NCBI GenBank assembly: GCA_030390025.1
Contig: CM059431.1
Span: 109,866,001-109,930,000 of the forward strand
Length of the DNA: 64,000 nucleotides
Origin: Squalus acanthias
Lineage: Eukaryota
Direction: 5' to 3'
Shown: in pieces, positions 3 to 42,760 of the stretch
How positions within the stretch are numbered: position 1 is the stretch's first letter
Layout: each line of letters begins with the position of its first letter
The notes under the pieces: generated by a model
Seen by the model: only the letters and a program-made list of their open reading frames with translations
Databases searched by the model: none
What the model was told of the DNA's origin: nothing
Translations under genes and position numbers: made by a program

Positions 3-3000
3 GCAGCCTCTTGGCAATCTAAGAAATGCTTCTTTTGTGGTGATGAGTTTCACCCTCGGAAATTCTGCCCTGCTCGCAATGCGTTTTGCAGTCATTGCAA
101 CAAAAAGGGTCATTTTGCAAAGGTTTGCCTATCAAGAGCCTCTACGAGGGCTTATCAAGCTAAGTCCTACCGAACTGCCCCGGTAAGGGCCTATCAAGAT
201 GTTCCGGCTAAAATCTATCGTGCTTCCTCTCGGGTTTTCTCTCGAAGAAACACACCTAGAGTTTCAGCCACTCTTTGTGCAACGACACCAATTACAGCTG
301 CTTGTCCTCAGAACCTATTCCATGCAGCTACAAAAGCATCAATTAATGGACATACTTTAGATGCCTTAATTGACTCAGGTAGCACTGATAGTTTCATTAG
401 GGAACAGATTGTTGCAGAGTTAAAGCTACATGTTTTCCCATCGGACCAGGCAATTGCGATGGCTCAGTCATCACTTAATACCAGAATTTCTGGCTTTTGT
501 ATGGTTGAAATAACACTTAATGGTCGCAGGTATCCCTCCACCCGGCTTTCGGTGCTCAAGGACTTATGTAGTGATCTTATCTTAGGGCTGGATTTTCAAA
601 AGCAGCATAAGAAACTCACCATTGAGTTCGGCGGATCCAAACCTGAACTCACTATTTCTAATATACGACCTCGATTACCGTTCTGTGCATTGTCAGCAGC
701 TTCACTGGATGAACCCTCACTGTTTACCAGTATCCCTCCTCGATGCAAACCGATTATAACAAAGTCACGACGTTTCAGTCAGGAAGACCAGTCTTTTATT
801 GCGGCTGAGATTTCTCGGCTTTTAGCAGAGGATATCATCGAGCCTTGTTCGTCGCCATGGCGCGCCCAGGTCGTTATTGTTAAGAACCCTCTACAACCTC
901 ACAAGAAACGGCTGTGCATTGACTATTCACAGACCATCAATCAATATACGGACTTGGACGCATACCCATTGCCGCGCATCGATGATATGGTTAATAAACT
1001 GGCTGAGTACACGGTGTTCTCAACATATGATCTGAAAAGTGCCTATCATCAGGTACCCTTGAAGGTCTCAGACAAGCAGTATACGGCCTTTGAAGCCAAT
1101 GGACGGCTGTATCAATTTCGTCGCCTCCCCTTTGGGGTCACTAATGGAGTGGCTGTCTTCCAGCGAGCAATGGATGACCTGGTCAAACAGGAAGACTTGA
1201 AGGATACGTTTCCTTATCTGGACAATATTACTGTCACAGGTCGCAATCAGCGGGAACATGACGCCAATCTCCAATGATTTTGGGATGCACTCCAGCACCG
1301 TAATTTGACATTAAATGCGGCTAAATCCATTGAGTCACAACCAACCATCAACATCCTTGGCTATTGTGTGGGCAATGGCATCATTAAACCTGACCCTGAA
1401 AGGCTTCGCCCACTCCAAGAGCTCCCGCCACCTAAGAATCCGGCCTCCTTGCGCCGGGCCCTCGGCCTGTTTGCATACTATGCTAAATGGATTCCTAACT
1501 TCTCGGACCGAATCCAACCTCTACTGAAGGCCAGCACATTCCCACTAGACACAGCGGCTGTTGCAGCCTTTAACCTCCTGAAAAAACAGTTGGAGAAAGC
1601 GGCTCTTCACTCCATCGATGAGAGTCTTCCTTTTGTTGTTGAGTGTGATGCCTCGGAGGTGGCGATCTCGGCCACTCTGAATCAGGAAGGTCGTCCGGTG
1701 GCATTTTTGTCCAGGACTTTTCAAGGGGCTGAGCTACATTATCCTCCAGTCGAGAAAGAAGCTACAGCCATCATAGAGGCAGTACGGAAGTGGACTCATC
1801 TCCTAGCTCGCCAGCACTTTACCTTAATCACGGACCAGCGATCGGTCGCCTTCATGCTCGATAATCGAAAACGGACCAAAATTAAAAATAATAAAATCCA
1901 GCTTTGGCGGCTGGAATTGGCCTCTTTTGGTTACACCATCCACTATCGACCTGGCAAGGAGAATGTGGCTCCGGATACCCTCACACGAGCATTCTGCTCC
2001 GCCATGGCACCCTCTACGCTCGTAGACATCCATGATGGGTTGTGTCATCCGGGCGTTACTCGCATGCTACACTTCGTGCGGTCCCGAAATCTCCCATTCT
2101 CTACCGGGGATGTAAAGAAGATGTGCTCGGACTGCAGAGTCTGTGCGGAATTGAAACCTCAGTTTTTCCGCCCCTCGGGTGGTATACTCATACATGCGAC
2201 CCAGCCAATGCAACGGCTTAGCATCGATTTTAAGGGGCCGTTGCCCTCTTCAACTCGCAACACTTATCTATTGACCATGGTCGATGAGTATTCCCGTTTT
2301 CCGTTTGCCTTTCCCTGCCCCAATATGCTGACGACCACGGTTATCAGCTGCCTTGAGCAGGTATTTGCTTTCTGTGGCATGGCATCCTATGTTCATTCGG
2401 ATCGGGGCCCTTCTTTTATGTCAGGAGAACTCAAGGCCTATCTCTCGGAACGGGGTATTGCTGCCAGCAGAACGACGCCTTATCATCCGGTCGGGAATGG
2501 GCAAGTCGAGCGTTTTAACGCTATCATCTGGAATGCGGTACGTCTGGCTTTGAGATCTCGGGGCCTACCCAACCAGCAATGGGAAGCAGTACTTCCAGAC
2601 GCATTACACTCCACACGGTCCCTCCTTTCGACCGCCACAAATACGACGCCTCATGAACGGTTCTTCCGATTTCAGCGTCGCTCATCCTATGGGATATCTC
2701 TCCCGTCGTGGCTGACTGCACCGGGACCAGTGCTACTCCGAAGATATGTCCGGGCGTCTAAGAATGACCCCCTGGTAGATGAGGTTGAGCTCACTGACGT
2801 CAACCCTACCTACGCCTATATTCGGTATCCTGACGGTCGGGAATCTACCGTGTCATTGCGGGATCTGGCTCCCTGCCCGCCGAAACATAGAGGGACACCA
2901 GGGGATGATATTGTACCAGGCACATCGCTGGGCTCGCCAGGTGCCTCTCATCACGATCTGGATCTGACGCCGGCTGGTACCTCACTCCAGCGTGCCGACC

Positions 3001-3293
3001 TGGGGCAGACTGACTATGAGCCCGTCGGGGCTCGCACGCGCAGCCACGATCCACCCCGTATCATACGCTCGGAAACGGATCTGCCACAGCCCTGCCCGAC
3101 ACCCGTTCGGGCACCAGTACACAGTCAGGATCGTCCTGACCCCTCACAGAGCGGGCTGGATCACTCGGACTCTGGTCCACGGCCCGCGGCGGGTAAACGG
3201 GCTAGGGGCCCTCTACCACTACGAGAACCCAAACGGGTGCGGCTCTCCCTCGTCCGACGGCTACGAAATGGAGGGAGCATCCCGGCCTCCTAA
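3..3293 (+). pseudogene. pol: Gypsy gag-pol polyprotein with one in-frame nonsense codon (TGA 1275-1277)
   Basis: ORFs 459-1277 and 1305-3293 are in the same frame, separated by a single TGA (probably CGA>TGA). The frame is open upstream to the window start. Confidence 0.9.
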
Positions 3294-8939: not shown

Positions 8940-10751
8940 TGTAGGCTTCGCAAAATTCCCCAGAAACTCGAATAGAACCCTAAAGGGGGTGAGTTTTGGA
9001 TCTTAACACGAATTTGGATTGATAGGACCTAAATGAAGGAATTTGAGGTCAAAACCTCAGTTTTGGACATTTTTAAGGATCAGGGAAGAAAAACCCTGAG
9101 GAAAATGACTTTGGATAATACTATACCTTTAAAAGGGCCATTGGGAAAACCTGCAGTCACAGAAACAAGACAGGCTGCGGGGAAAGGGTGTGGTGAGGCA
9201 GTGGACAGCTTTTGGATATTGGGACCAAGCCAAGCTGTCTGGGAGATGTTTGCACTGCAATCCAACCAAGGAGGAAGAGCCTCACCCAAAACCTCACAAA
9301 CACATCCAAAAAAATGAATAAACCAAGACCCCTTTTGAAATCCCCAGGTCCAAACAGAATGCTGGAAGTCTGAAAACAATTCCTAACAATAAAACTTCCA
9401 GCACACAGCTTCACAACCCATCATCCCATCAAAAACCAATTAGCCAAGTATCTACAGGAACAGACTTAACGAGCCCACCAAAAACCTAAGACAAAAGGAG
9501 CAAGATTTGGCGCGTAGATAAAGGCCCTGTCTAAATGGGAGACATCGGAAGCCATCAGGACAAGTTAACATAAAGTTAAAGTCATCAGACTTAATGAGCC
9601 CGCCAAAACCTAAGACAATAGAATAAACAGGCCTCAACTGAAACCTAAATCACTTCAACACGAAACCGATTTAGTAAAGTGGTTTTGGCGCGAAAAACAC
9701 AATAGGCCTGAACAGTATAATTGAGGGCCTAATCCCCCAAGAAGCGGAGAGTTACACAAACGGGTCTACACACACGACACAAGCAGGAGGAGAGACAAGC
9801 AGCCAGGCCACGAGGCAGGCAGACCCGAGGCGAGATCAGAGGCAGGGACAGACAAGACCAGGCAAGGGCTGGAACTGAGACCACGAGCTGGGAGCGAGTC
9901 GGCATCGCTCAACATACGGTCCAGCTCTAGCAGACACTAGCAAAGGTCATTGGAAGCTGGGAGTGAGTCGGCATCACTCAACACACGGTCCAGCTCCAGG
10001 AGGTACCGCCCCGACAGGCCTCCAACGCAACGAACCAACAACAAGAGCCGCCAAGGGCTCCACGAGGCAAACCGACACTTGAAAGTACCGCGGAAACCAA
10101 GGCCCCGCGCAGCAACCAATCACCTGGCGACACCGAAAGACCAACACCAGGAAAACCCGAAGACACGCAAGTTTCTACGCTACAAACTATTCCTGACTTA
10201 CCCCAGGGTAAGACTTTCCCTTAAAAAACTCTAAACCCTACCTCTAAGGAAGAAAATCGGGTACTCACCTGATACATCCAATACGCACCTTACTGCATCG
10301 GCGGACAGACCCAAACTGACCTGGAGTGCAGCTGAAGTCTTCCACCACGTCCGGGGTACGGCAGGCGCCAACAACCAAAACCTCAGTGAACCCCGAAATC
10401 GCGAAATACCTCAACTGTCAAGAACTGTCAATTGGTGAGCATTATCCCTGATCCTCTGGAATTAAACCTAGCTAGGCAATGGGATTGGGAGGGATAAGGG
10501 GTTTTGTATATTGTAATTCTCCCTCGCCTGTACCGTGTGTTCCCCAACCTGTGTTTAAGCATTAAGTGTGTTTTAAGTTTGTTACCTTTTCTTTAATAAA
10601 AGTCAAAACTCTTTCATCAAAACCTGTTGTCTACTGCATCTTTGTTCACAACCCCCAAATAAGTCCAAGGTCTAGAACCAGGGGCGTGGGAGTGATTCGA
10701 ACTGCTCACTGAGTCAGAGGTGAAGCTGACCCTACCACACCACCCCCTACA
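8940..10751 (+). mobile_element. Solo LTR (~1.8 kb), related to the LTRs of the 18975-31754 provirus
   Basis: TGTAGG...CCTACA termini and 4-bp TSD ACTG (8936-8939, 10752-10755). TATAAT ~9716, GTGAGC donor 10435, AATAAA 10595. Extensive similarity to 40912-42565. Confidence 0.9.
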
Positions 10752-18974: not shown

Positions 18975-20688
18975 TGTAAAGTTTCGCAATTATCGCGATT
19001 CGAAATAACAAGACAGAAGCAGATTCGTTTGATCAGTTTATTTAAACAAAATGCTGTCATGATATAAAGGACACAGAAGCCTGTAAAATGGCCGCCACGC
19101 ATCGTGGCAGAAGCTTCCAGAATTACAGTGGGCAGACAAGATGGCGTTCGAATAAACATTTCAATATAAGACGGGATCATACTCGATAAGCACTGATAAA
19201 GACAGGATGCAACCTGTTTGCATTTATGACAATAGCAAAAGATATGAGTGCTGGAATCGTTTTCCATGCACAAGTAAGGACCATTGTACTGGGCAATCGA
19301 AGGCCCATCCAGACACATCAATACACAAATACCCCCACGGCTCTACAATGAGAGAGCCATTCTCGGGTGATTAAACAAGTATTCGGGGGCCCCCAAAACC
19401 AGTCAAGGAGATGATTCATACGATCCTGGCTGGGCCAACAATGGGGAAAACATTAACGGGTAGTTGGCCAGTTTCAGGTGCTACCGAAACCCGTTAAAGA
19501 CAAGAATCGCCCCATGCTGGGAGTTTTAAGCGCCAATATTTCACAAAGGACAAACATTAAGATTTGGGCGGGAGATAAGGGAACACAGCACTATAACTAT
19601 AGTGAACAAATGTCCATCGGTCTCTTATCTCTGCGGACTCTTGACTCGGGCTGAACTTTTATTCTCCTATTCTGATCCTCGGGTATCACTCTGCTGGACG
19701 AGCAGCCTTCTGTGTTTTCTCTGGACTCTGTTGACTCTGGACTTTAGCCGCACTGGACGGTTATTCGAATGTTGGGTGGGGCTCAATTGGAACGAGTCGC
19801 CTCGACGAAGGCCAGTGACCGGGTGCACCATCTCGAGAGTCGGTAAACGGTGTTTGGACCCAAAGGCCCAACAAGACAAGACGAAATGACAAGAGAAGAA
19901 GAAGAATCCACGTGCCGCCGCGGTCAGTAAACCCCGACCGCGCCCGAAAATATACGACCCATTTCTTGAACTCTACAGGTTACTGCACGAACCGGTCAAA
20001 GACTCTACTTTGAATTCTACCGACAACTGGTGTCGGTACAGGAAGACTTTTCTTTGAGTTCTACAGCCGGGCCCGAGTGCTGTCGAGTTCTTCATGACAA
20101 CGGGGAGCCCAGCCTGCTTGCCGCAGCAGCGAAGATAAACAAGTGGGGTACAGAGACCCCTCCAAACACGTGACAGTCAGGCGCTGCAGCGAAACGAGCC
20201 GAGTGCCTCACTTAAAAATTCTCCGAAGTATCACGAGTGGTGAGCATGTTTCCCGATCCTACAAATCTAGACGTAGTGTAGGTATTGATAAGGGAGGGTG
20301 GTTTATTAAGGATAAAGTATAATGTGTTCCCCTTTTTACGATGTGCCGTGCGTTCTTCATTACCATAGACCAAGCTTTATGAATGTATGTATACTTGTAC
20401 TCTCGTTAATTTGCGCCTATGACATGTACTTCATGATTTTGGACGCTATGCAATAAAGATTTCCGTTTCGTACTATTCAACCGGGTCTATTTGAGTTTTT
20501 CTCTGCATTACTGCTCTCGCACCTAAGTCCAGTGTTAGAACCGTAAGGGCGAGTGGGTCGAACCACTCACAGGTGCTTATTGCAACAAGGCTGGCCGGAG
20601 ACCAGAGCAAGCAATAGTATTAGGCAATGAAGGCCTAACCTCGCACCAGCACCGTCTGCGATACAAGCACGCGACAAAACCCCTTACA
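18975..20688 (+). repeat. 5' LTR (1714 bp)
   Basis: Direct repeat of 30040-31754 (about 20 substitutions and 1 indel by manual comparison). TG...CA termini. AATAAA at 20452. Confidence 0.97.
20240..20245 (+). promoter_or_regulatory. Putative major splice donor inside the LTR (TG|GTGAGC)
   Basis: Consensus-like 5' splice site, conserved as TGGTGAGCAT in both solo LTRs (10435, 42254). Confidence 0.6.
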
Positions 20689-20692
20689 GAAA

Positions 20693-22515
20693 ATGGCGAC
20701 CACGGCAGGACACTGGCAGCGAGAGAGTAATGTTTTAGACCCTGGTGTGAATAGGCAAAATGTGATGGATGAGAGGGTAGCCGACTATGTGTTTGGGAAG
20801 GTTAACTTAACCAAAAGGTGGATAAGTGACCTGCTGATGGATAAGCGTCCGTTAGACGCAGCCATCAAATGGACAGACAGTAAAGAGCATAAGAAGTCGG
20901 TAGAGAAAGCGGTCTGGCTGATGTGCTACAAGAAGCAAGTCCAACTTTCGGACCAGGTCATTGTGGCACAGGCAGCTCAGATCAAGGATTTGGAAGTTGA
21001 GATGGAGGAAAAGATCACGGGGGACAGAAACTCATTGCATCCTTGAATGCGTTACATCAGGAACGCCAGATAGTAGCCAACCACCATGAGGCTAAAATTG
21101 ATTACCTAGAGTGTCAGGTCATGGAAGCGAAATTAAACGAGGGTAGGATTAGAGAACGGTGTGCCCGCCTAGCTAACCAGATAAAAGCCCAAGAAGAAAG
21201 CTTGAAGGGAGTTAGGGCGGCATATAAGATGGCCCTCGAGGATAGGCATGAGGGAGCCGACCACAGTGTTTGCCAGAAGGAGATAGGGAACCTAAGAGAG
21301 GCCCTGAATAAGGCAAACGGCTTGGTGTGCCTCATCAGCCCGTCAGCAAACCAGCCACAGGTGGGTAGGGAATTCCCCAAATCCCTACCAGACAAAGCAG
21401 AGGAGGTATTTGCCACTGCGCCCTCCGCGCCACCCAGCTATTCGGCAACCTGGATAAGGGAGGAAGTGGTGGAAATAGAAAGGGAGGTTCCCGAGGTAGG
21501 ACAGTCCCCGGAGGTAGAGTCGAGCCCGGGACCGATGTGTCCGCTCCGAGGTCACAAGAGAGGCCCGAACGCAGCCAATGGGGATGACGGGGATGTCCTG
21601 AACCAGCTTGTATTGCCTCACAGCTCACACCAGCTGAGAGCAATGATTAGCCATGTACGGAAGCTGTCCGAATCGGATGACCCTTCCGTACACTTTAGGG
21701 AGGTAGAACAGACCACAGCAATTAATGGCTGCGACGATGCGGAAAAGACCAAAATGTTGCTGTTCTCGTTAGATAGCTCGATCCTTCAGTGTCTCTCAGA
21801 CGAGAGCAAGAAGGGAAATAAAACCTATGGGGAGTTACGGGACGAGGTCCTAGAAGTGTTGGGGGCGGATGACGAAGGTCCGTTCGTCAGATTGGGTCAG
21901 ACCGTACAGATGGAGGGAGAACCCCCGAAGGTTTTCGCCGACAGGCTGTGGCCAGTATACCAGCGTAGCTGCCCAGGTGCGCCAGGGCGCGATTATCTGG
22001 ACGGTGCCGGTTTTACTCATTGGCTCAGGTGTTTAGTAGCCAACAGTTTGCCAGCCGTCAGGGAGCAGGCCAAAGCGTGGTTTGATCCCACTAACCCCGC
22101 CACAACAGAGGAGTCAGTCCTGAATTGACTCACCATAGGGTATCGGAACACTAGGAGCACGGGAGTGCATCCCCTTAAGGGAAAGGTGCATGAGGCACGG
22201 CCCGCAGCCCCGGCTCAAAAGGAGTGGCATCAGGAGGGAAACCGCGCCCCACAGGCCAGTGGTGCTTGTTACGGGTGCGGGAAGACAGGTCACTGGCGTA
22301 AGAACTGTAGGAACCCCTGGAAGGACCCCAGGGATAAAAATCCTGCAGCCCTAACCCAAGCGCCTGTCTCTGAGAGAGGAGCTGGTGTGCCTATCCATCC
22401 CGATGCGATAGAATCAATGTTGGGAGCTATGCGGTCCCTTATGATTTCGCAAGGAAGGGTGGCAGTCGCTACCGGCCTCACAGATGCCACAACCCCGTCC
22501 ACCAGTACCCAATGA
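20693..22515 (+). pseudogene. gag: gag (N-terminal coiled coil, PSAP/PPSY late domains, capsid-like region, CCHC zinc knuckle)
   Basis: ORFs 20693-21046, 21043-22128 and 22165-22515 join via one frameshift (~21010) and one in-frame TGA (22126). Zinc knuckle CYGCGKTGHWRKNC. Confidence 0.85.
20694..20711 (+). promoter_or_regulatory. Primer binding site, tRNA-Arg type
   Basis: TGGCGACCACGGCAGGAC, 5 nt after the LTR. Complementary at 17/18 to the 3' end of vertebrate tRNA-Arg(TCG) (...GTCCTGCCGCGGTCG-CCA, recalled from memory). Confidence 0.8.
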
Positions 22516-22793
22516 CTAGAGCCCGCGCAGCCCGTTTACCTGTGTCCGCTCAGCTATGATGCGTGGAAAAGACCCCTGGTTGAGATGGAGGTAGAGAAGC
22601 AGAAGGGTAGTTATTTGTTGGACACAGGAGCTTCATGCACCGTGATCCATACGGATAGCCCCTTTGACTCACCACTGTCTACCAAGGTCCCATTCACATT
22701 AGCGGGGTTCACAGAAAAGAGCAGGCTGGCGCGTTCTCCATTCCGCTCTCCATTCATTTAGGAGCACTCCACACCACATGGAAGTGCATACTG
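22516..22793 (+). pseudogene. pro: Aspartic protease N-terminal half, in frame with gag after the TGA
   Basis: Reads LEPAQPVYLCPLSYDAWKRPLVEMEVEKQKGSYLLDTGASCTVI (DTG 22621-22629). A 1-nt frameshift near 22713 joins it to ...KCILMKWQ..GILGSDLL. Confidence 0.85.
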
Positions 22794-25700
22794 ATGAAAT
22801 GGCAAGAGGGGGGTGGCAGAGGTATCCTCGGATCGGATCTCCTATCGGAACACGGGATCCTCGTGGACCTTAGGAATCACTGTCTCTGGGGAGCCAAGGG
22901 TGGGAAAGGCAAGGTAGTTGTAATCCCGGGGAAGGAAGGTAAAGGGGCCCTGTGTACCATGAAGCCATCCGGAGGTTACGACCTCGGGCTTATGGTCGCG
23001 GATGTCCCAACGGACATGCAAACGTACGTGTCAGATAATATGCACGCGTTTGCAACCCACAAGCACGATTGTGGGAGGGTTACCGGGTTTGAGGTCAGCG
23101 TAGACGGGGACCCCATGACCCGGCCCCAAAAACAGTATAACTTCCCCAAAGAAGCAGAACCCGATATGGAGACAGCAATGTCCTCCTTGGTGCAGCAGGG
23201 CGTGTTGAGGCCGATAGCCACACACGTGAACTCCCCATTATGGCCGGTGAGGAAGCCGGATAATTCGTGGAGGGCCACGGTGGACTACAGAGTCCTTAAC
23301 AGTAACATCCCCGCCTGCGCGCCCACAGTAGCAGCAATTGCTGACCTGATAGGGAGTATCCCAGCGTCCGCGACCACGTTCACGGTGCTGGATATCTCGA
23401 ACGGTTTTTGGTCCATCCCGCTGCGGCGAGAGGACCAGTACAAGTTTGCCTTTACTTTCAAAGGACAACAGTACACATGGAACTGTTTGCCACAGGGTTT
23501 CCACAACAGCCCCAGTATTTTCCATCAGTGTATGGCAGGAAGTTTAAAGGAGTTTAGTCAGCCCAATCAGATAGTGCAGTACGTGGATGATTTGCTCCTG
23601 TTCACGGACTCAAGGGAGGAGCATGGACCACTGCTAGCCGAGTTATTGGAGCTGCTAGCGAGAAAGGGTTTTAAAGTGAACCCTAAGAAAGCACGTATCG
23701 GTCAGCAGGAAGTAAAATTCCTGGGTCTGACCATTCGCGCTGGGGAAAGAGCCATAGATAAGGCTAGGAGGGAGTCGGTGCAGGAGTTACCGATTCCCAA
23801 CACCATAACGGGTGTGAGGTCCTTTCTGGGACTGACCGGTTACTGTAGAGACTTCATCGAGGACTATGCGGCCACAGCAGCTCCGCTGCTCCGACTCCTC
23901 CATAAGGGAGTGGAGTGGTCTTGGGACGAGGGTTGTCAGGCAGCATTCGAGAAGTTAAAAAGGGATTTGCAGACCGCGCCAGCTTTAGGGGCCATAGATG
24001 GGGGGAAGGAGTTTTTCCTGGAGGTAGCTGCCAGCGGAGACAGCTTGAGCGCTGTGCTGCTCCAAGAGCGTCACGGCAAGCTGAGGCCGGTTGTCTATTC
24101 GTCCAGGGTGTTAACGGATGTGGAAAGGAGTTTCTCCAATTGCGAAAGGCATCTTTTAGCCACGCATTGGGCTGTGAAAAGATCAGCGATCTTCACAGGG
24201 CTCTCTCCCATCACTCTCCTCACCCATCACACACCAACTAAGATGCTTCTAGATGGGAGGATTAAGGATGGGACCGTAAGCAGCGCTCGTATTGCGCGCT
24301 GGACCCTTCTCCTTTCCCAGATGGATCTTAGAGTTAAAGGTCTTTGCGAGCCCAGGCTTGCGGCCAACTTGGTATACCCCGGAACAGCCCACCGGTGTTC
24401 GGTGGAAGGGGTGTGGGAGGTCAACATAGGTTTACGGGCCGGGATACATCCCACAGGTCGCGAGATTTATGTTGATGGTTCCAGCACAGTGTCCGCTGGC
24501 GAACGACTCACAGGGTGTGGAGTTTATGACACTGCGGCAGACCTTGCCCTGGCAATTAAACTCCCCAGCACCATGAGCGCGCAGCAGGCTGAGCTGTCTG
24601 CGGTGGCGTACGTCGTTACCCACCCAGAAATTTTCCCAACCCCATACACGATTTGTTCAGACAGTATGTTTACGTGCAATTCGTGTACGGAATACCTGGC
24701 CATTTGGTCCCGCCGTGGTTACACCTCCGCGGATGGGCGACCTTTAACGGTGAAGCCCTTGCTGGAAAAGATCCTAGCAGCAGTAGGGGAGGAAGGGGAG
24801 ATTTTCATCCATAAGGTGAAAGCTCACTCCTCCACAGAGCCCCGTGGGGAGGGCAACCAGCAGGCGGATGCGCTAGCCAGGGAGGGTGCCCGCAACGGCA
24901 TTTTCTGGGACCCCTATGGACCCGGACCCGTGGCAGCGATCCAAGGCAGGGAAGGGAATCCCGGGAACACCAGGGTAGCACTGCCCCTAGACCTTAAGAC
25001 CGTCCAGAACCAGGATCCCGCCCTAAAAGCAGTTCTCAGAACGATTACTGAGGGCAAGCAGGTAGAGGGCCCGTACAGTACGGCAACCCTCTCCGTTAAA
25101 GAAGGCATGCTGTTCCGCGAAGAACAGTGGGTTGTGCCGCAGCAGCACAGGAGGGAATTCCTCCAGTTAGCTCATGAGGGGCCGGGGGCAGGACACCCCG
25201 GGCCCGAGGTTACCTGGCAACGGGTAGAGCAGGCGGGATGGTGGCCGGGACTCAGGGAGCAGGTCCGCGAGTTCTGTGCAAACTGTCTTGTGTGCGCTGC
25301 AAACAACCCAGACCCCCAGAAAAGGAAAGTGCACATGGGGCACATCAGGAGGCTGGAGGGACCATGGCAGTCGATACAGATCGATTACATAGGGCCCCTG
25401 CCCACCACCCAGGGAGGCTACAAATACTGCCTCGTCTTGGTGGATGTGTTTTCCAAATGGGTAGAAGCCTTCCCCTGTGGAACAGCTACGGCGCTGGGTA
25501 CAGCCAAGATCTTGGTCCGGGAAGTGTTCTCGCGGTGGGGACTCCCCCGTTTCGTGGAGTCAGACCAAGGGAGTAATTTCACCGGCCAGGTGATGCAGAA
25601 CACCCTCATGCTTTTGGGCATTGAAGGGAAGTGGCACGTAGCGCACAATCCCCAGTCATCCGGGATTGTTGAACGCATGAACCGGACCCTCAAGGAGAAG

Positions 25701-27005
25701 CTGAGGAAAGAGACTATGAACTCGCCCCAAAAATGGGCGGAGGTTCTGCCTCTAGTCCTCATGGGGATCCGGGCCAGCCAGTCGAAGAGTACGGGGTATT
25801 CCCCGTACGAGGTGATGACTGGTAGGATCATGCGAACCCCCACCCATGTACTAGCCCCGGTGCTCACTGAGGATCAGCTCCAAGAGGTGAAAAGGGACAA
25901 GTTTGTCCAGACCCTCTTGGAGCGCCTGAAGCAGGTTTACGAGCAGGCAGCTGGGAACATGGGAAGACAGCATCAGGGCAATCGCCTGTTGCTGGAACCC
26001 CGCAAGAAGCAGGAGTGGGAAGTCGGAGATCAGGTCATGGTTAGGAACTATGCCAGAGTAGGGAGTTTGGAACCACTGTATATGGGGCCCTACAGTATTG
26101 TAGATAAAGCGAGTCCCATGGTGTACGCCGTAAAGGTACCTCGGCGCACGAAATGGTTCCACATTAACCAGTGCAAGTTGTATAAGCCGGGTGCACAGGG
26201 GCCAATCACGGGGGCCAGACCTGCGAGTGGGGACTCGCAGCCCCGGGTAGGACCGCAGGGCACACAGACCGGTAAAGCAGCCTGCTTGAGGGGAGAGGAC
26301 ATTCTAGAAAAGTGTAGGATCTTTTCTTGGTGTTGGGATTCAGATGAGGAAGAACTCGAGGAGCTCGACCAAGGTAGTGACCCGATCGGAGAGGTGCTGG
26401 GGTCGGAGGACGAAAGTTTCGTCCTCGACTCAAGCTCAGGGGAGATAGGGGCTGCGAGTGGAGATCCACACAGGGTGGAATCAGAAACTGCAGATCCCGA
26501 GCCCAGGGGGGCGGAGCTAGGGGAGACGGAGCCAGCGGCTGTGGTAGGACCACAGGTCGTGACGGTGGAAGTCTCGGTACCCGGTCCGTCGGCCCTGGAA
26601 GTCTTGCCCTTGGGGGAGGTAGGGTTTGCGAGTGGAGGACCACATACTGGGCCAAGTAGGGTGGAGCCAGAAACTGCAAATCCCGAGTTCAGGGGGGCGG
26701 GGCCAGGGGAGACGGAGCCAGCGGCTGTGGTGGGACCACAGGCCGCGACGGTGGAAGTCTTGGTTCCTGGTCCGTCGGCCCTGGAAATCTTGCCCAAAGT
26801 AGCCCTCCGTAGGTCAAGTCGGACACCCCAGCCCAGGAAGTCGTGGTCAAGTCCCCCGTACGCCCCCAGGCGTAAGTTCAAGGTCAAGGCAGCCCAGGGA
26901 GATCCCAGTCCCAGCGCAGAGGCGACAGGCTGCGGCAGATCAAAGGAAGGGGTCAGTGCCCTCCCACCACTGGGAAAAGCTTGTGGCAGCCTTCGCAGAA
27001 TTTAG
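22794..27005 (+). CDS. pol: pol: protease C-terminus, RT, degenerate RNase H (tether), second RNase H, integrase, long C-terminal extension
   Basis: 1403-aa open frame: LPQGFHNSP, YVDD (23580), FLEVAAS (no catalytic Asp), IYVDGSS..SAQQAEL..ICSDS..KVKAH..GNQQADALA, HHCC, QIDYIG..SDQG..GIVERMNR, GPY. Confidence 0.95.
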   Translation: MKWQEGGGRGILGSDLLSEHGILVDLRNHCLWGAKGGKGKVVVIPGKEGKGALCTMKPSGGYDLGLMVADVPTDMQTYVSDNMHAFATHKHDCGRVTGFEVSVDGDPMTRPQKQYNFPKEAEPDMETAMSSLVQQGVLRPIATHVNSPLWPVRKPDNSWRATVDYRVLNSNIPACAPTVAAIADLIGSIPASATTFTVLDISNGFWSIPLRREDQYKFAFTFKGQQYTWNCLPQGFHNSPSIFHQCMAGSLKEFSQPNQIVQYVDDLLLFTDSREEHGPLLAELLELLARKGFKVNPKKARIGQQEVKFLGLTIRAGERAIDKARRESVQELPIPNTITGVRSFLGLTGYCRDFIEDYAATAAPLLRLLHKGVEWSWDEGCQAAFEKLKRDLQTAPALGAIDGGKEFFLEVAASGDSLSAVLLQERHGKLRPVVYSSRVLTDVERSFSNCERHLLATHWAVKRSAIFTGLSPITLLTHHTPTKMLLDGRIKDGTVSSARIARWTLLLSQMDLRVKGLCEPRLAANLVYPGTAHRCSVEGVWEVNIGLRAGIHPTGREIYVDGSSTVSAGERLTGCGVYDTAADLALAIKLPSTMSAQQAELSAVAYVVTHPEIFPTPYTICSDSMFTCNSCTEYLAIWSRRGYTSADGRPLTVKPLLEKILAAVGEEGEIFIHKVKAHSSTEPRGEGNQQADALAREGARNGIFWDPYGPGPVAAIQGREGNPGNTRVALPLDLKTVQNQDPALKAVLRTITEGKQVEGPYSTATLSVKEGMLFREEQWVVPQQHRREFLQLAHEGPGAGHPGPEVTWQRVEQAGWWPGLREQVREFCANCLVCAANNPDPQKRKVHMGHIRRLEGPWQSIQIDYIGPLPTTQGGYKYCLVLVDVFSKWVEAFPCGTATALGTAKILVREVFSRWGLPRFVESDQGSNFTGQVMQNTLMLLGIEGKWHVAHNPQSSGIVERMNRTLKEKLRKETMNSPQKWAEVLPLVLMGIRASQSKSTGYSPYEVMTGRIMRTPTHVLAPVLTEDQLQEVKRDKFVQTLLERLKQVYEQAAGNMGRQHQGNRLLLEPRKKQEWEVGDQVMVRNYARVGSLEPLYMGPYSIVDKASPMVYAVKVPRRTKWFHINQCKLYKPGAQGPITGARPASGDSQPRVGPQGTQTGKAACLRGEDILEKCRIFSWCWDSDEEELEELDQGSDPIGEVLGSEDESFVLDSSSGEIGAASGDPHRVESETADPEPRGAELGETEPAAVVGPQVVTVEVSVPGPSALEVLPLGEVGFASGGPHTGPSRVEPETANPEFRGAGPGETEPAAVVGPQAATVEVLVPGPSALEILPKVALRRSSRTPQPRKSWSSPPYAPRRKFKVKAAQGDPSPSAEATGCGRSKEGVSALPPLGKACGSLRRI

Positions 27006-27282
27006 GTAGACCGCCCTGGGAACGGGCGGCGCTGTACAGTTTAAGTTTAGGATAAGTTTATAAGTTTAAGTTTAAGTTTTGTAAGTTTGGTAAGTTTGTA
27101 GTTTAATTTTAAAAGTAAACGGTAAAATGATGGGAGTTAGTGATAGGAATAGTTAAAGTCTATCCAGCATACATGTCGTTATACGTGAGACGAGGTCAAG
27201 GGACCCGCTCACCCTTCACAAAAGCCAGAGACTCTTGGGAGGCTGGCTACATCATTTTATCTGATCACAGGAACCAGGAAAG

Positions 27283-29628
27283 ATGGAAAGGATTCTGATA
27301 GTGCTCGCAACGATCGGATATGGATTGGCCTATCGGGGCCTCACCAAGGATGTCGTTGTGTTTGGTTGCTCCGGGACACGGGCCCCATCGCGACGGATGG
27401 GACCGGGGAGCGAAAGGCTGAGGAGACCGCCACTTATTTCCACAAGGGAAGGTGGCCGGGATGGCTGGGAACGAATTCAACGGAATACTCCAGCGCATCC
27501 GGATTTGCCTACAAAGAGACTTCTTTACTGTGCCCCAGAGTGAGGATCATTGCACCCAGAATCAGCGTCACCGTCGGCAAAAGGATTTGTTTGACATGCA
27601 ATGGGAAGGTCCCATTGAGCCGATGGTGGTGGTTACGGAAGTTAAGCAAGACTATGAGAAATTCCTCGGTTGAGTGGGAGCGATTGGGTAACAATACCCA
27701 TCGGACAATTACGGGGACTAACGGACAATTGAAAGTCTGTTGGGACAAATGGTGGGAACCGGATGAGGGAATATGTTTGTATGTGGGGATCGAAGTACGT
27801 TTGCCCCAAGGGTATATCCATATTTTTCGTACACCAGTGGCAGGATAACGGGAAAGGGATGAGGTGGGATGTCAGCACAAAGGGGTGCGGAGCTCCATTC
27901 TCCCCGATCCCGGTAAACGCCACTGAACTCATCACGCGCCCACGCAAGGCTCCGCCCATGATTCCGGTGGTTTTGGCTCAGGAGGAAGGGTGCCCTAAAA
28001 CCACTAAGGGGCCCGGGAATGGTTTGGTACTGGTCCCAACAGACCAGATACTATTTCAAGGGGTACATTACGCGGTGGCTTCGGTGATTCTAAATCTCAC
28101 CGAGGTGCGGTTACCAGAGTGGTGTCCCAAAGAAACGGAACAATTGTACCAGGTCCTGTTAACAAACATGTTCAGACAATTCTACGAGTTTGATTTTGCA
28201 GAGATTGACAAAACAAGCTTGTACACCACATGAAGATTTGGGTCAGGTGGGGAGACAAAGAAGGGGTATTGTGAACGATATGTTCACCGCCTTTAATACA
28301 GGAACATCTGTGGTCAACGCTCTAGACAACGTGGAGCTGCAGACCCAGGTCAATGGTTTAAAAACACAATTAAAAAGCATCCTCACAAGCAAAAACAAGG
28401 TAGTAGGGTCTGAGTTACATGAGGACCAGGCCATGACACTACACTTAAAAAGGAGATTATAGCAGAGCTGGAGAAGCATGCGAGAACGGTAAATGCCCTG
28501 ATTAGGGAAGATCGGAATGCATCCGATCAAGCTGCGCAGAACGAGGTGTGCGTACTATACGGGGCGTGGTTACTGGGCGAGGGCCGCAGTAATTTGGAGG
28601 ATTTAAAACAAGGTTTGGTCCCGTCCTGAATAAGTAACAAACACCTGCAGGCGCTCCACCCTTTTCAGAACACATTAAGCCCGTGCCAGCTCAGGCTAGC
28701 CTCAGAGGCATACCCAGTCCCCGTGGACTGCGGATGGTCAAACCATACCATCATGGGTATAGTACTACGTATGCCGGTTTTGGGCGACACAGCAAAGCCC
28801 ACCCCGGTGTATCGGGTAGAGAACATGGGTGTCATTCAGGGGGGAGCCCACGTTCGCTACGCAGCGGTCCCACCTTACGTCATCCGCTGGGAGCAAACGA
28901 TGACAGGTACCGACCTATCGGGTTGTCGTGGCCGGGGAGCACACATAATACTGTGTCCCCAGCACTTGAATGCCTTTTTAACACCGCAATGCGGGTTCAG
29001 AACGGCTGGCGCGAAGCCCATGAATTGCACCATGGAGGCAATGACACAAGATCATGTGCCTCCGCAGGTGGCATACATAGGGGGTGGAACATATTGCGTT
29101 ACCACTGCAGCGCAACACTACCAGCATGGAAACCACAGCCGCTGTCCAGTGAGTGACAGCAGTTTCTGTTTTAAACCCAGGGCTGAAGTTCAAGTGGCAC
29201 AACAGCGAATTGTCCCGATCCCTGAACCATCCACTGTTCATCTTACAGTAAAAGAGAATTTCACCGACTTGCAGCGATTCGTCGCGCATTTCGGATACAT
29301 CATTTCCCCTCTCCCTGAACACCTCACCAAGCTTTTGAAAGCCGTCACGGTATCACAAAAACATTTTTACACCCTGGAACAAAAGACTGTCGAGATAGGG
29401 ACAGAAATTTTGGACATAGTAATCCCACCGTGGTGGGATCTGTTCACTAATATTGAAGTTCCTTCATGGATCAGGATAGCCTCCCACATTTTGGTTGTGT
29501 GCCAAGTTATAATAGTAGTGTACCTATTGGTCGTACACTGCAAGAGAGGCAAACGCCTCACAAAGCAGGAGAACACAGGGGAGTGGAGAGAACGTTACGT
29601 GCGCGTGAATGAAGAAAGTGCCGCGTAA
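27283..29628 (+). pseudogene. env: env: class I fusion glycoprotein with signal peptide, Ig-like domain, furin site, fusion peptide, heptad repeats, TM
   Basis: Signal-like MERILIVLATIGYGLA; RQRR|GIVNDMFTAFNTGTSVVNALD (28253-28264); Cys-rich ectodomain; TM WIRIASHILVVCQVIIVVYLLVVHC. Broken by about four frameshifts (~27362, 27769, 28228, 28450) and TGA 28627. Splice acceptor ttttatctgatcacag ends at 27270. Confidence 0.85.
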
Positions 29629-30026
29629 ACGGCCAGGATGACGCCGCTCCATTTTTTTTTTTACCATGTGTGTTTTCGTAATTGATTGTTGTTTATGAAT
29701 ATGTGTAACTAAGTTTGGAACTTTTGTATTTTTAAAATAGTTGTTTTGATTATTTTATTATTTTTCCTTGTATAATAAAAACATGCATATACAGGTGGTG
29801 CGCGAGGCATCGGCCTCTTGCACCTGGAAGGCGTATTCGCAATGCAAGTTTAAAGGCAATACTGCCTACGATTTGTCCAAGTTTAAACAATGTAATTTCT
29901 CTGGGAAATGAGGACGGCATGGAGGCCATAGATAGTTTAAGTTAAGGGAGTGTTTGGATGTGGAGAATCGGGATAATTTTGCTCACCACCACTTTTAATT
30001 GATACGATAAGCGGAGTTATTCGCAT

Positions 30027-30039
30027 CAACAGGAGGGAC
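30027..30039 (+). promoter_or_regulatory. Polypurine tract
   Basis: caacaggagggac immediately before the 3' LTR. Confidence 0.7.
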
Positions 30040-31754
30040 TGTAAAGTTTTGCAATTATCGCGATTCGAAATAACAAGATAGAAGCAGATTCGTTTGATCA
30101 GTTTATTTAAACGAAAATGCTGTCATGATATAAAGGACACAGAAGCCTGTAAAATGGCCGCCGCGCATCGTGGCAGAAGCTTCCAGAATTACAGTGGGCA
30201 GACAAGATGGCGTTCGAATAAACATTTCAATATAAGACGGAATCATACTCGATAAGCACTGATAAAGACAGGATGCAACCTGTTTGCATTTATGACAATA
30301 GCAAAAGATATGAGTGCTGGAATCGTTTTCCATGCACAAGTAAGGACCATTGTACTGGGCAATCGAAGGCCCATCCAGACACATCAATACACAAATACCC
30401 CCACGGCTCTACAATGAGAGAGCCATTCTCGGGTGATTAAACAAGTATTCGGGGGCCCCCAAAGCCAGTCAGGGAGACGATTCATACGATCCTGGCTGGG
30501 CCAACAATGGGGAAAACATTAACGGGTAGTTGGCCAGTTTCAGGTGCTACCGAAACCTGTTAAAGACAAGAATCGCCCCGTGCTGGGAGTTTTAAGCGCC
30601 AATATTTCACAAAGGACAAACATTAAGATTTGGGCGGGAGATAAGGGAACACAGCACTATAACTATAGTGAACAAATGTCCATCGGTCTCTTATCTCTGC
30701 GGACTCTTGACTCGGGCTGAACTTTTATTCTCCTATTCTGATCCTCGGGTATCGCTCTGCTGGACGAGCAGCCTTCTGTGTTTTCTCTGGACTCTGTTGA
30801 CTCTGGACTTTAGCCGCACTGGACGGTTATTCGAATGTTGGGTGGGGCTCAATTGGAACGAGTCGCCTCGACGAAGGCCAGTGACCGGGTGCACCATCCC
30901 GAGAGTTGGTAAACGGTGTTTGGACCCAAAGGCCCAACAAGACAAGACGAAATGACAAGAGAAGAAGAAGAATCCACATGCCACCGCGGTCAGTAAACCC
31001 CGACCGCGCCCGAAAATATACGACCCATTTCTTGAACTCTACAGGTTACTGCACGAACCGGTCAAAGACTCTTCTTTGAATTCTACCGACAACTGGTGTC
31101 GGTACAGGAAGACTTTTCTTTGAGTTCTACAGCCGGGCCCGAGCACTGTCGAGTTCTTCATGACAACGGGGAGCCCAGCCTGCTTGCCGCAGCAGCGAAG
31201 ATAAACAAGTGGGGTACAGAGACCCCTCCAAACACGTGACAGTCAGGCGCTGCAGCGAAACGAGCCGAGTGCCTCACTTAAAAATTCTCCGAAGTATCAC
31301 GAGTGGTGAGCATGTTTCCTGATCCTACAAATCTAGACGTAGTGTAGGTATTGATAAGGGAGGGTGGTTTATTAAGGATAAAGTATAATGTGTTCCCCTT
31401 TTTACGATGTGCCGTGCGTTCTTCATTACCATAGACCAAGCTTTATGAATGTATGTATACTTGTACTCTCGTTAATTTGCGCCTATGACATGTACTTCAT
31501 GATTTTGGACGCTATGCTATAAAGATTTCCGTTTCGTACTATTCAACCGGGTCTATTTGAGTTTTTCTCTGCATTACTGCTCTCGCACCTAAGTCCAGTG
31601 TTAGAACCGTAAGGGCGAGTGGGTCGAACCACTCACAGGTGCTTATTGCAACAAGGCTGGCCGGAGACCAGAGCAAGCAATAGTATTAGGCAACGAAGGC
31701 CTAACCTCGCACCAGCACCGTCTGCGATACAAGCACGCGACAAAACCCCTTACA
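30040..31754 (+). repeat. 3' LTR (1715 bp)
   Basis: Direct repeat of 18975-20688, followed by TSD TCTG. Confidence 0.97.
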
Positions 31755-40712: not shown

Positions 40713-42760
40713 TGATGTTTTTACGCAGCGAGTTGTTATAACCTGCAATGCACGACCTGAAAGGGTGGTAGAAGCAGATGCAACAGTAACTTCCAAAAGG
40801 GAATTGGATATAGAATAGAATCATAGAATAGTACAGCACAGAAGGAGGCCATTCAGCCCATTGAGTCTGCGCCGGCTCTTTCGAAGAGCAATCCAGTTAG
40901 TCCCACTCCCCTGTAAGGTTTCCAAAATTTGCAAATCCCCAAAAACCTAAGGAAAAAGGACTTTGGAACTACCTCAGAGTGATAAAAATGCATTTGGGCC
41001 TAACCTAAAGAATTTAAGACCAAATCCCAAGTTTTGGCATTTTAAAACTATGTCTGGGCCTGTAAAGGGACAAGGAGGTGGGGTCGACCTCTGTAAAAGC
41101 AGTTTTGGTTATTGCAGTTAATTACACTGTCTGGGGAACCGGGATGACCTCACTCAAGCCCCAGCAGACATTAACATTTGAACAATAGACCCTGGGAGAA
41201 GACAGTCCCACCCAAAATACAGGCCCCATCAAAACCAATTACAGGGCCCATCAGAATCATGCATAATAAAACCCACTCAGGACCATTCTATAGAAAAGAC
41301 CGAGTCCAGCCTAGAGACCCAAAACACGAAATCAATCACCAGTGATCAACCAAGGAGATAGACAGGATGCAAACCATCCAAAAGGCCATTTGACACTTAC
41401 AGAGCAGTTACTGGTAACAGGCCCACCAAAACCAGACAATGAACTGAGTAGATTTGGCGGGTAGATAAGGCCATGTTCAATGGGTGAGATTGAAGGCCTG
41501 TTAAAAAAACAATTAACGCGCTAGTAAGTCGTTACCGATTTACGAGCCCGCCAAAAACCAGACAATGAACTGAGTAGATTTGGCGGGTAGATAAGGCCAC
41601 TTCAATTTAGTATAATTGAAGGCCCGTTAAGCAGTTCAAGGTCAGTCGCAGTCGGTGGTCATCAGAAGAAGAAGAAACCAGAAAGAAGACAAGCCGAGCT
41701 GGAAGCGAGTCGGCATCGCTCACCACTCAGACACACCGGAGTCCAGCCCGTGAAGATACCACCTCGACGGACCTCCAACAATGGTCCCAACACAGTCACC
41801 CGGAGCAACAAGCAGCAAGAAGACATCGACGGCTCCACAGGGTCGACCGACACACTAGACAAGGCCTAAAGCCATCGCGGAAACCAAAGGCCTCACGAAA
41901 CCAACAACCGCATATTACCCCCAACTGACCAGGTAATAGCAGGCCACCGCGACCAACAAAGACCAACTCAAGGAAAGAAAACCCGAAGAACCGCAAAGTT
42001 TCCACGCTACAAACTATTCCTGACTTACCCCTGGGTAAGATTTCTACCAAAAGACTCTAAACCCTACTCCTAACCAAAGGAAATTGGGTACTCACCTGAT
42101 AGATCCAAAATGCACCCTACCGCATCAGCGGACTCGTGAAGACTGACCAGAGACGCAGGTGAAGTCCTCTACCGCGTACGGGGTACGACAGACACTAACC
42201 GCCATAAACAGCGAACCCCAAAACCGCGATTTAGCCCAACTGTCAAAGGATTGGTGAGCATTATCCCTGGTCCTTCAAAACCTAACTTAGCTGGAAAAGT
42301 GGGGTTGGGAGGGGTGAAGTATTGTTCCACTGTCGTTTCCCTCGCTTGTACCGAAGTGTTCCCCACCTTTAGAGTGTTAAGAGTGTTGTCATTTGTGTTT
42401 TACCTTTTGAATAAAGATTGAAGTTCTTTTCATCAAACTCAGTTGTCTGCTGCACCTTTTGTCACAACCCCCAAATAGGTCCAAGGTCTAGAACCAAGGG
42501 AGTGGGAGCGATTCGAACCGCTCAGAAGTCAGAGGTAAAGCTGACACAAACCACCACCCCCTACACCCCGGCTCTTTCCCCATATCCCTACAATTTTTTC
42601 TCCTTCAAGTATTTATCCAATACCCTATTGAAGGCTACTATTGAATCTATATATACTTGAAAAGGAAAATTTGCCCGGCTATGAGGAAAGAGCAGGGCAG
42701 TGAGACTAATTTGATCGCTCAATGGGCTGAATGGCCTCCTTCTGTGCTATAAGATTCTAT
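40713..42760. mobile_element. Nested CR1 3' fragments: + copy (40713-40812, 42650-42760) interrupted by a - copy (40813-40911, 42566-42648)
   Basis: Both halves of each CR1 tail rejoin when the inner elements are removed. Confidence 0.75.
40912..42565 (+). mobile_element. Solo LTR (~1.65 kb), same family group as 8940-10751
   Basis: TGTAAGG...CCCTACA termini and TSD CCCC (40908-40911, 42566-42569). Splits a CR1 tail. Shares acgctacaaactattcctgacttacccc, gggtactcacctgat, ttggtgagcattatccctg and the U5 region with 8940-10751. Confidence 0.9.

Follow-up and report, generated by a model that had tools for sequence, protein, structure and literature searches.

F-like envelope proteins (Env) have been published for two groups of retroviruses, the lokiretroviruses (PMC7947760) and the foamy viruses (PMC11468914), and also for the errantiviruses of invertebrates (bioRxiv 2023.10.26.564294). 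As to how retroviral Env arose, Wang and Han leave a choice of four scenarios (PMC7947760). Surveys of anamniote Env proteins used gamma- and beta-type queries (bioRxiv 2021.11.23.469661), which would likely have missed an F-type env family of sharks and frogs. F-type or Ig-bearing Env proteins in endogenous retroviruses of sharks, or in those resembling snakehead retrovirus (SnRV), are not described in the literature covered here, which is partial, so some part of what follows may have been described earlier.

We analysed a stretch of 64,000 nucleotides from Squalus acanthias (GCA_030390025.1, contig CM059431.1, positions 109,866,001 to 109,930,000), hereafter the window. It contains an LTR-bounded provirus of ~12.8 kb at 18975-31754, which lies, like all its parts, on the forward strand. 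The 5´ LTR (18975..20688, 1714 nt) and the 3´ LTR (30040..31754, 1715 nt) both run TG...CA, and TCTG, a 4-bp target-site duplication, stands just before the former and directly after the latter. The two LTRs are 98.8% identical over 1715 nt, differing in 18 transitions and 2 transversions (K2P 0.012). This distance dates the insertion to ~27 My with the shark rate assumed by Han 2015 (PMC4422223) versus ~2.7 My with the mammalian rate. Sequencing contigs from four runs span the whole element with summed depths far above those of the flanks; this is consistent with a high-copy family, depth not being copy number itself. No RNA run was among the listed runs that hold env, and the related-locus search found no relatives in viral or metagenome contigs. 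Five nucleotides past the 5´ LTR, an 18-mer starting with TGG (20694..20711) resembles a primer-binding site in sequence; presumably its primer is tRNA-Arg. No tRNA gene that could serve for comparison is found within the 64-kb window.

Other repeats share the window with the provirus. A separate pol fragment of Ty3/gypsy type (1278-3293, 671 codons open) encodes a single RNase H-like domain and an integrase. Dispersed repeats, likely LINE/SINE fragments, are numerous over 5800-60100; they fall into families D1-D20 and inverted pairs I1-I25. Another pair of repeats, the second, is located at about 9886-10708 and 41697-42524.

The gag gene (20693..22515) is broken by a frame change near 21020 and an in-frame stop at 22126-22128. 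It encodes one CCHC zinc knuckle (zf-CCHC E 4.5e-4). Its N-terminal part looks like a coiled coil by eye, the heptad shuffle test not being significant (918/5000). An ATG in the gag frame (20693-20695) runs into the first bases of the primer-binding site, and another ATG is present at 20765. At the end of gag (22510-22520), TGA is followed by CTAG and the protease continues in the same frame; the TGA-CTAG context favours stop-codon readthrough. The pro-pol region (22516..27005) begins with a frame-disrupted protease (LDTGAS) and continues as an open frame of 1445 codons (22668-27005) encoding RT (YVDD), tether, RNase H and an integrase with H2C2 and rve parts. As in lokiretroviruses, RNase H is dual (tether plus RH) and the integrase is NYNRIN/CGIN1-like. 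A Pro/Glu-rich extension follows the integrase, and the corresponding region (26200-27005) contains a 138-nt duplication (26472-26609 and 26658-26795, 90% identical).

The env gene occupies 27283-29628 (~781 codons, stop at 29626-29628) and is split into five frame pieces. It starts with a signal-peptide-like hydrophobic segment (27283..27330), which aligns with the N-terminus of a skate protein (P0007). A putative Ig-like domain of the surface subunit (27530..27810, in which the frame shifts near 27770) is followed by an F2-like core with a long beta strand and an HRC-like helix (28009..28230). The equivalent residues (about 188-255) of an intact bamboo-shark relative, P0030, align with paramyxovirus F2. 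An initial annotation of this locus had described the fusion subunit as it appears after cleavage. Its motifs were right, while the breakage of the gene, its start ~900 nt upstream, the Ig-like region and the lineage of the carrier had been missed.

The furin-type cleavage site RQRR lies at 28253..28264, and R-x-[RK]-R is found at the same place in nine of ten relatives checked. The fusion-peptide-like segment that follows (GIVND..., 28265..28321) is no more than mildly hydrophobic, with a KD mean of 0.72 (0.23-0.84 in 9 relatives). The long first heptad claimed in the initial annotation is present as an HRA-like helix (28322..28506; LDNVEL..LKSIL at 28322-28384, KEIIAEL..TVNALI at 28450-28503), but a shift of frame near 28447 cuts through it. 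Next come the Cys-rich domains III/I/II of the F1-like subunit (28507..29322), where an ectodomain of ~300 aa had been proposed; the stretch between the heptads is indeed Cys-rich, but measures 273 aa with 10 Cys, nine of which are kept in >=88% of the covering homolog rows. The remaining proposed elements were all located within 29323-29628. They comprise an HRB-like heptad helix (29323..29406; LTKLLK..KTVEI at 29323-29397, model helix 295-327) and a terminal part (29425..29628) consisting of a Trp-rich membrane-proximal segment (PPWW..WIRIAS, 29425-29484), a TM anchor at about 29476-29532 (best 19-residue Kyte-Doolittle mean 2.64), a tail of 28 aa and the stop. The subunit behind the cleavage site amounts to ~454 codons, an F1-like length that agrees with the proposed 450 aa, and about 327 codons with a short signal peptide precede the site. 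Read across the frame breaks, the order of cleavage site, fusion peptide, HRA, HRB and single C-terminal TM is that of class I fusogens. CX6CC is absent from every env piece (ISD was judged by eye), and with this and its ~454-aa post-cleavage part the protein does not conform to gamma-type Env.

Comparison with skate and sawshark proteins (tblastn) revealed frame changes near 27370, 27770, 28230 and 28447 and an in-frame TGA at 28627-28629, inside the Cys-rich domains. This env copy is defective as assembled and cannot make an intact protein. Five breaks in 2.3 kb are many for an LTR divergence of 1.2%; they may be assembly errors, or may be older than this insertion.

Heptad patterns alone are weakly above chance, the observed scores being reached by 439, 378 and 167 of 5000 shuffles. 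Real support for the post-cleavage motifs comes from conservation across 41 relatives and from fold searches rather than from heptad scores. Single-sequence Pfam and PDB searches of the env pieces returned nothing significant, and neither an env piece nor a relative matched the Pfam fusion family PF00523. With a 40-row env sequence profile, the best PDB matches were foamy-virus Env proteins (E 0.0019 and 0.0055).

Two structures were predicted, both as monomers. The window model covers the protein from the middle of HRA onwards to its C-terminal end; the stop was read as X, and 31 alignment rows were used (pLDDT 72, pTM 0.30). The second model is that of P0030, a natural, intact protein of 739 aa that is 26% identical (pLDDT 64, core 80-95; pTM 0.46). 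With the window model, Foldseek found nine chains at E<=0.001, all of them F proteins of hMPV, PIV5, measles virus or RSV (best hMPV F, 8.7e-5). Foamy Env 8RM1 followed at 1.2e-3 with the highest TMq listed (0.21), and all 31 listed rows were pneumo/paramyxovirus F or foamy Env. The model of P0030 matched hPIV3 F with E 2e-10 and 243 chains at E<=0.001. VIA, an aligner independent of Foldseek, was run with P0030 over 48,161 chains, and its top 12 rows were likewise all F or foamy Env (Z 10.3 to 6.9). Among the individual alignments were NDV F (Z 10.3, 366 aligned residues, rmsd 21), prefusion foamy Env (Z 7.9, 269 aligned, rmsd 5.3) and postfusion Nipah F (Z 11.5, 288 aligned, rmsd 5.3). The structural match of P0030 begins at the F2-like strand upstream of the cleavage site. 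Nested beta-rich domains I/II/III and the F2 strand are thus seen in the predicted models, with 270-370 residues matched at low pTM.

It could be argued that the resemblance to F is superficial, resulting merely from two long helices around a beta-rich middle. Global TM-scores are indeed low (0.12-0.32) and rmsd values large, as are pTM values low and heptad scores close to chance; F is missed by Pfam, and single helices crowded the wide VIA search with the window model, in which Z peaked at 6.7 and never reached 8. However, the matches also take in the beta-rich domains and the strand of F2, they were obtained with two programs and two proteins, and the sequence profile finds foamy Env independently. 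A merely superficial resemblance is in our opinion very improbable, and the predicted models indicate that the env fusion subunit very probably has the F-family fold.

This agrees with the comparison that the initial annotation had proposed: top Foldseek matches were pneumo/paramyxovirus F, baculovirus F appeared in the viral library, and neither a classical retroviral TM as best match nor the lack of any fusogen match, the outcomes named there as contrary, was seen. No gamma- or beta-type TM was among the listed top Foldseek matches of either model. The wording "F-like rather than retroviral TM" stands in its first half only, being valid in contrast to TM of the gamma/beta type. As an opposition to retroviruses in general it is false, because Envs of foamy viruses and lokiretroviruses have an F-like fold (PMC11468914, PMC7947760). 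Besides mumps F and baculovirus F, matches in the viral library (BFVD) included foamy Env, glycoproteins of lispi-like viruses and the Envs of two epsilonretroviruses, WEHV1 and WDSV, which in their predicted form matched the F-like model with E 1e-9 and 2.5e-7, respectively. The entries Q9WHI8, A4GTG3 and A0A2P1GML9, comprising walleye epsilonretrovirus Envs and a fish filovirus glycoprotein, match this model. Judging from such predicted structures, the walleye epsilonretrovirus and fish filovirus matches suggest that the F fold is spread wider among fish viruses. Feature neighbours of env in the Atlas were glycoproteins of Monjiviricetes and rhabdoviruses at low recognition, which is uninformative.

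Next, we consider which retroviral lineage carries this Env. The RT of the window has the motif PQGFHNS, as in canonical retroviruses, whereas the 24 Loki RTs aligned in the PMC7947760 supplement show PFG without exception. This alignment speaks against reading the element as a lokiretrovirus. RT identity of the window reaches 52-54% with NYNRIN-like Pols of frogs and coelacanth and with one further database Pol, and 32-38% with four Pols bearing Loki motifs. In an RT tree of database Pols (midpoint root, without reference retroviruses), the latter four form a 100/100 clade excluding the window, the position of the window relative to this clade not being resolved.

A lokiretrovirus extending its group to cartilaginous fishes would explain the F-like Env with its RxKR-type site, the dual RNase H, the NYNRIN-like integrase and the likely N-terminal coiled coil of Gag. 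The undefined position in the small RT tree leaves room for it, and the group could have been missed in Chondrichthyes, of which 0/6 were positive in the original screen (PMC7947760). Nevertheless, while the Mononegavirales-F-like Env is there by structure, the RT does not fall inside the Loki clade, with PQG in place of PFG and the low identity to Loki-motif proteins given above. No teleost Loki Env occurs among the named env relatives (18 of 41 looked up), and the one Loki Env read, that of Loki-Xtr, has no N-terminal extension. We therefore regard a lokiretrovirus as improbable.

Equally improbable is a foamy (spuma-like) virus of cartilaginous fishes, in which case the F fold would be simply the known fold of foamy Env. 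Foamy endogenous retroviruses of cartilaginous fishes are cited in PMC11468914. Foamy Env is the best PDB sequence match of the env profile, and foamy RTs are the best PDB matches of the RT (E 2e-49, MLV-type 1e-42), but this contest lacked an SnRV-like RT among the PDB matches listed. Unlike in spumaviruses, Gag contains a CCHC knuckle and pol lies in frame behind the gag stop. There is no large RBD before the furin site (217-543 in foamy viruses), the signal peptide is short, and the 411 nt that separate env from the 3´ LTR contain no ORF of 100 aa. Zinc-finger-free Gag, non-readthrough Pol, a leader with inserted RBD and accessory genes after env, by which spumaretroviruses are recognized, are thus all missing from the element.

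Instead, the RT resembles the SnRV row by eye. The motifs PACAP, LDISNGFWSIPL and HKHDCGR are common to the window Pol and CmiERV scaffold 2 (by eye), a likeness closer than that to SnRV. CmiERV scaffold 2, representing lineage I of the elephant shark, was grouped with SnRV by Han 2015 (PMC4422223), and SnRV has been placed in clade Huo (Xu et al. 2018, PMC6001957). SnRV has a single zinc finger, a coiled-coil Gag and gag-stop suppression, and Ovex1 has an amber stop (PMC2717909). With SnRV and CmiERV-I the element shares RT and pre-RT motifs (by eye), a cartilaginous-fish host (CmiERV), the in-frame gag-stop-pro arrangement and the single zinc finger. Taken together, the sequence likenesses, read by eye for SnRV and CmiERV-I, make it quite probable that the carrier belongs to an SnRV/CmiERV-I-like lineage, being neither Loki nor foamy. 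As for the locus as a whole, we consider it probable that env encodes a class I fusogen of the fold family of paramyxo/pneumovirus F and foamy Env, borne on a likely snakehead-retrovirus-like lineage and left in a defective provirus.

This env is not an isolated case. A profile search over 1.84 billion representatives yielded 41 proteins at E<=0.001, and names were obtained for 17 of the 18 relatives looked up, all from sharks or frogs. Shark genera are Chiloscyllium, Mustelus, Heterodontus, Heptranchias, Pristiophorus and Scyliorhinus, frog genera Pelodytes, Bombina and Xenopus; the skate relative, P0007, comes from Rhinoraja. The closest named relatives, from sawshark and skate, show 57-76% identity, but across sharks and frogs the family has diverged deeply (17-36% identity). 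A quick 16-row tree joins the window to three sawshark proteins (99) and puts one shark protein together with those of frogs. At least three copies of a distant member, nearly identical and 675 aa long (P0061, P0065, P0066), are located on different large contigs of Bombina bombina, which suggests a recently active frog element. Pieces of the family are also fused into the shark gene models P0008, P0031 and P0045 (named cadherin-related 5-like, Niban 1-like and fbxo15), either as annotation artefacts or by exonisation.

Closer examination of the N-terminal region of env points to a possible additional domain. About 230 residues precede the F2-like strand, with visible Ig-type motifs (B-strand Cys, C-strand Trp, D-x-G-x-Y-x-C), whereas in the Loki-Xtr Env this strand directly follows the signal peptide (PMC7947760 supplement). 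Signals for an Ig domain came from four tools and were weak in each, all family scores being under curated cut-offs. They include Pfam Ig_3 at E 0.16 (V-set at E 0.045 in the relative P0048), 46 weak PDB matches, mostly antibody light chains (best E 0.09), and matches of the skate homolog to V-set/I-set clusters in the Atlas at 0.90-0.91. BLAST of the region against P0030 gave a single 23-residue match (E 0.008). The model of P0030 gives the Ig fold no structural support, since confidence is low (pLDDT <50) over its N-terminal 178 residues. The provirus contains no gene for a separate attachment protein (HN/G). Because of this and of its position, the Ig-like domain is a candidate for the receptor-binding module, a role to which we give somewhat less than an even chance.

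By analogy with F and foamy Env, the ancestral Env was most likely a furin-primed trimeric class I fusogen. A precursor of ~780 aa would have been directed into the secretory pathway by its short signal peptide and assembled as a trimer. Cleavage at RQRR by a protease of the furin type would then have produced a surface part of ~310 aa (the Ig-like domain with the F2-like strand and helix) and an F1-like part of ~454 aa. Upon triggering, HRA would extend, the fusion peptide would enter the target membrane and HRB would pack back, forming a six-helix bundle.

Since CmiERV-I combines a gamma-type env with a related Pol, env was likely exchanged at least once in the SnRV-like/CmiERV-I lineage, as far as sequence comparison can tell; the direction of exchange is not readable from the data. 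It is conceivable that F-type Env is ancestral for the SnRV-like clade, SnRV included, and for deeper retroviruses, and that CmiERV-I switched to the gamma type. F-like Envs of lokiretroviruses and foamy viruses are published, WEHV1 and WDSV Envs match the same model, and the env relatives in sharks and frogs are far apart in sequence, which all fits such an origin. However, SnRV Env was not among the 50 viral matches listed. This account differs from our best explanation only in the direction of the swap. We rate ancestry of the F type as possible, rather below an even chance. More speculative still, and in our view unlikely as a whole, is the broadest picture, in which the snakehead-like retroviruses of sharks and frogs would enter cells by means of a single protein, namely an F-type fusogen whose receptor-binding head is a host-like Ig domain acquired by capture. 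Alongside the Envs of Loki, foamy and epsilon viruses, these would then mark the F fold as ancestral, the gamma type later replacing it in sister lineages such as CmiERV-I.

F-like Env, known from foamy viruses and lokiretroviruses, is met here in what is likely a third retroviral lineage; this suggests an exchange of envelope types between retroviruses of fishes. The combination of an F-type Env with a canonical-type RT outside both Loki and foamy viruses, beside a published Pol relative with a gamma-type Env, can help to separate ancestry of the F fold from its repeated capture. Screens for env that use gamma/beta TM motifs miss a whole family, which in cartilaginous fishes and frogs is apparently abundant. 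If the Ig-like head is real, it would represent a third way of adding attachment to an F core, besides the separate protein of paramyxoviruses and the inserted RBD of foamy viruses.

The Env described here resembles several known systems. With F of paramyxo- and pneumoviruses (hPIV3 1ZTM, NDV 3MAW, Nipah 8DMJ, hMPV 7M0I, RSV) it shares the predicted fold, the F2/F1 layout and the F1-like length, at only 9-14% identity; it differs in residing in an LTR provirus, in its extra N-terminal domain and in having no separate attachment protein. Foamy Env (Fernandez et al. 2024, PMC11468914; PDB 8RM0/8RM1/8OZH) has the same core of domains I/II/III and a long TM subunit, but the window env shows no membrane-anchored leader peptide, and its extra domain is N-terminal rather than placed as an insert ahead of the furin site. 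The Env of lokiretroviruses (Wang and Han 2021, PMC7947760), a PF00523-like retroviral env with signal peptide, R-x-K/R-R site, fusion peptide, coiled coil and TM, has in Loki-Xtr (supplement) the same order of motifs by eye, the N-terminal extension with the Ig-like region being present in the window env only. Finally, CmiERV scaffold 2, the likeness of which lies in Pol, has a different primer site and an env that, by eye, is of the gamma type, showing CX6CC and an ISD-like motif.
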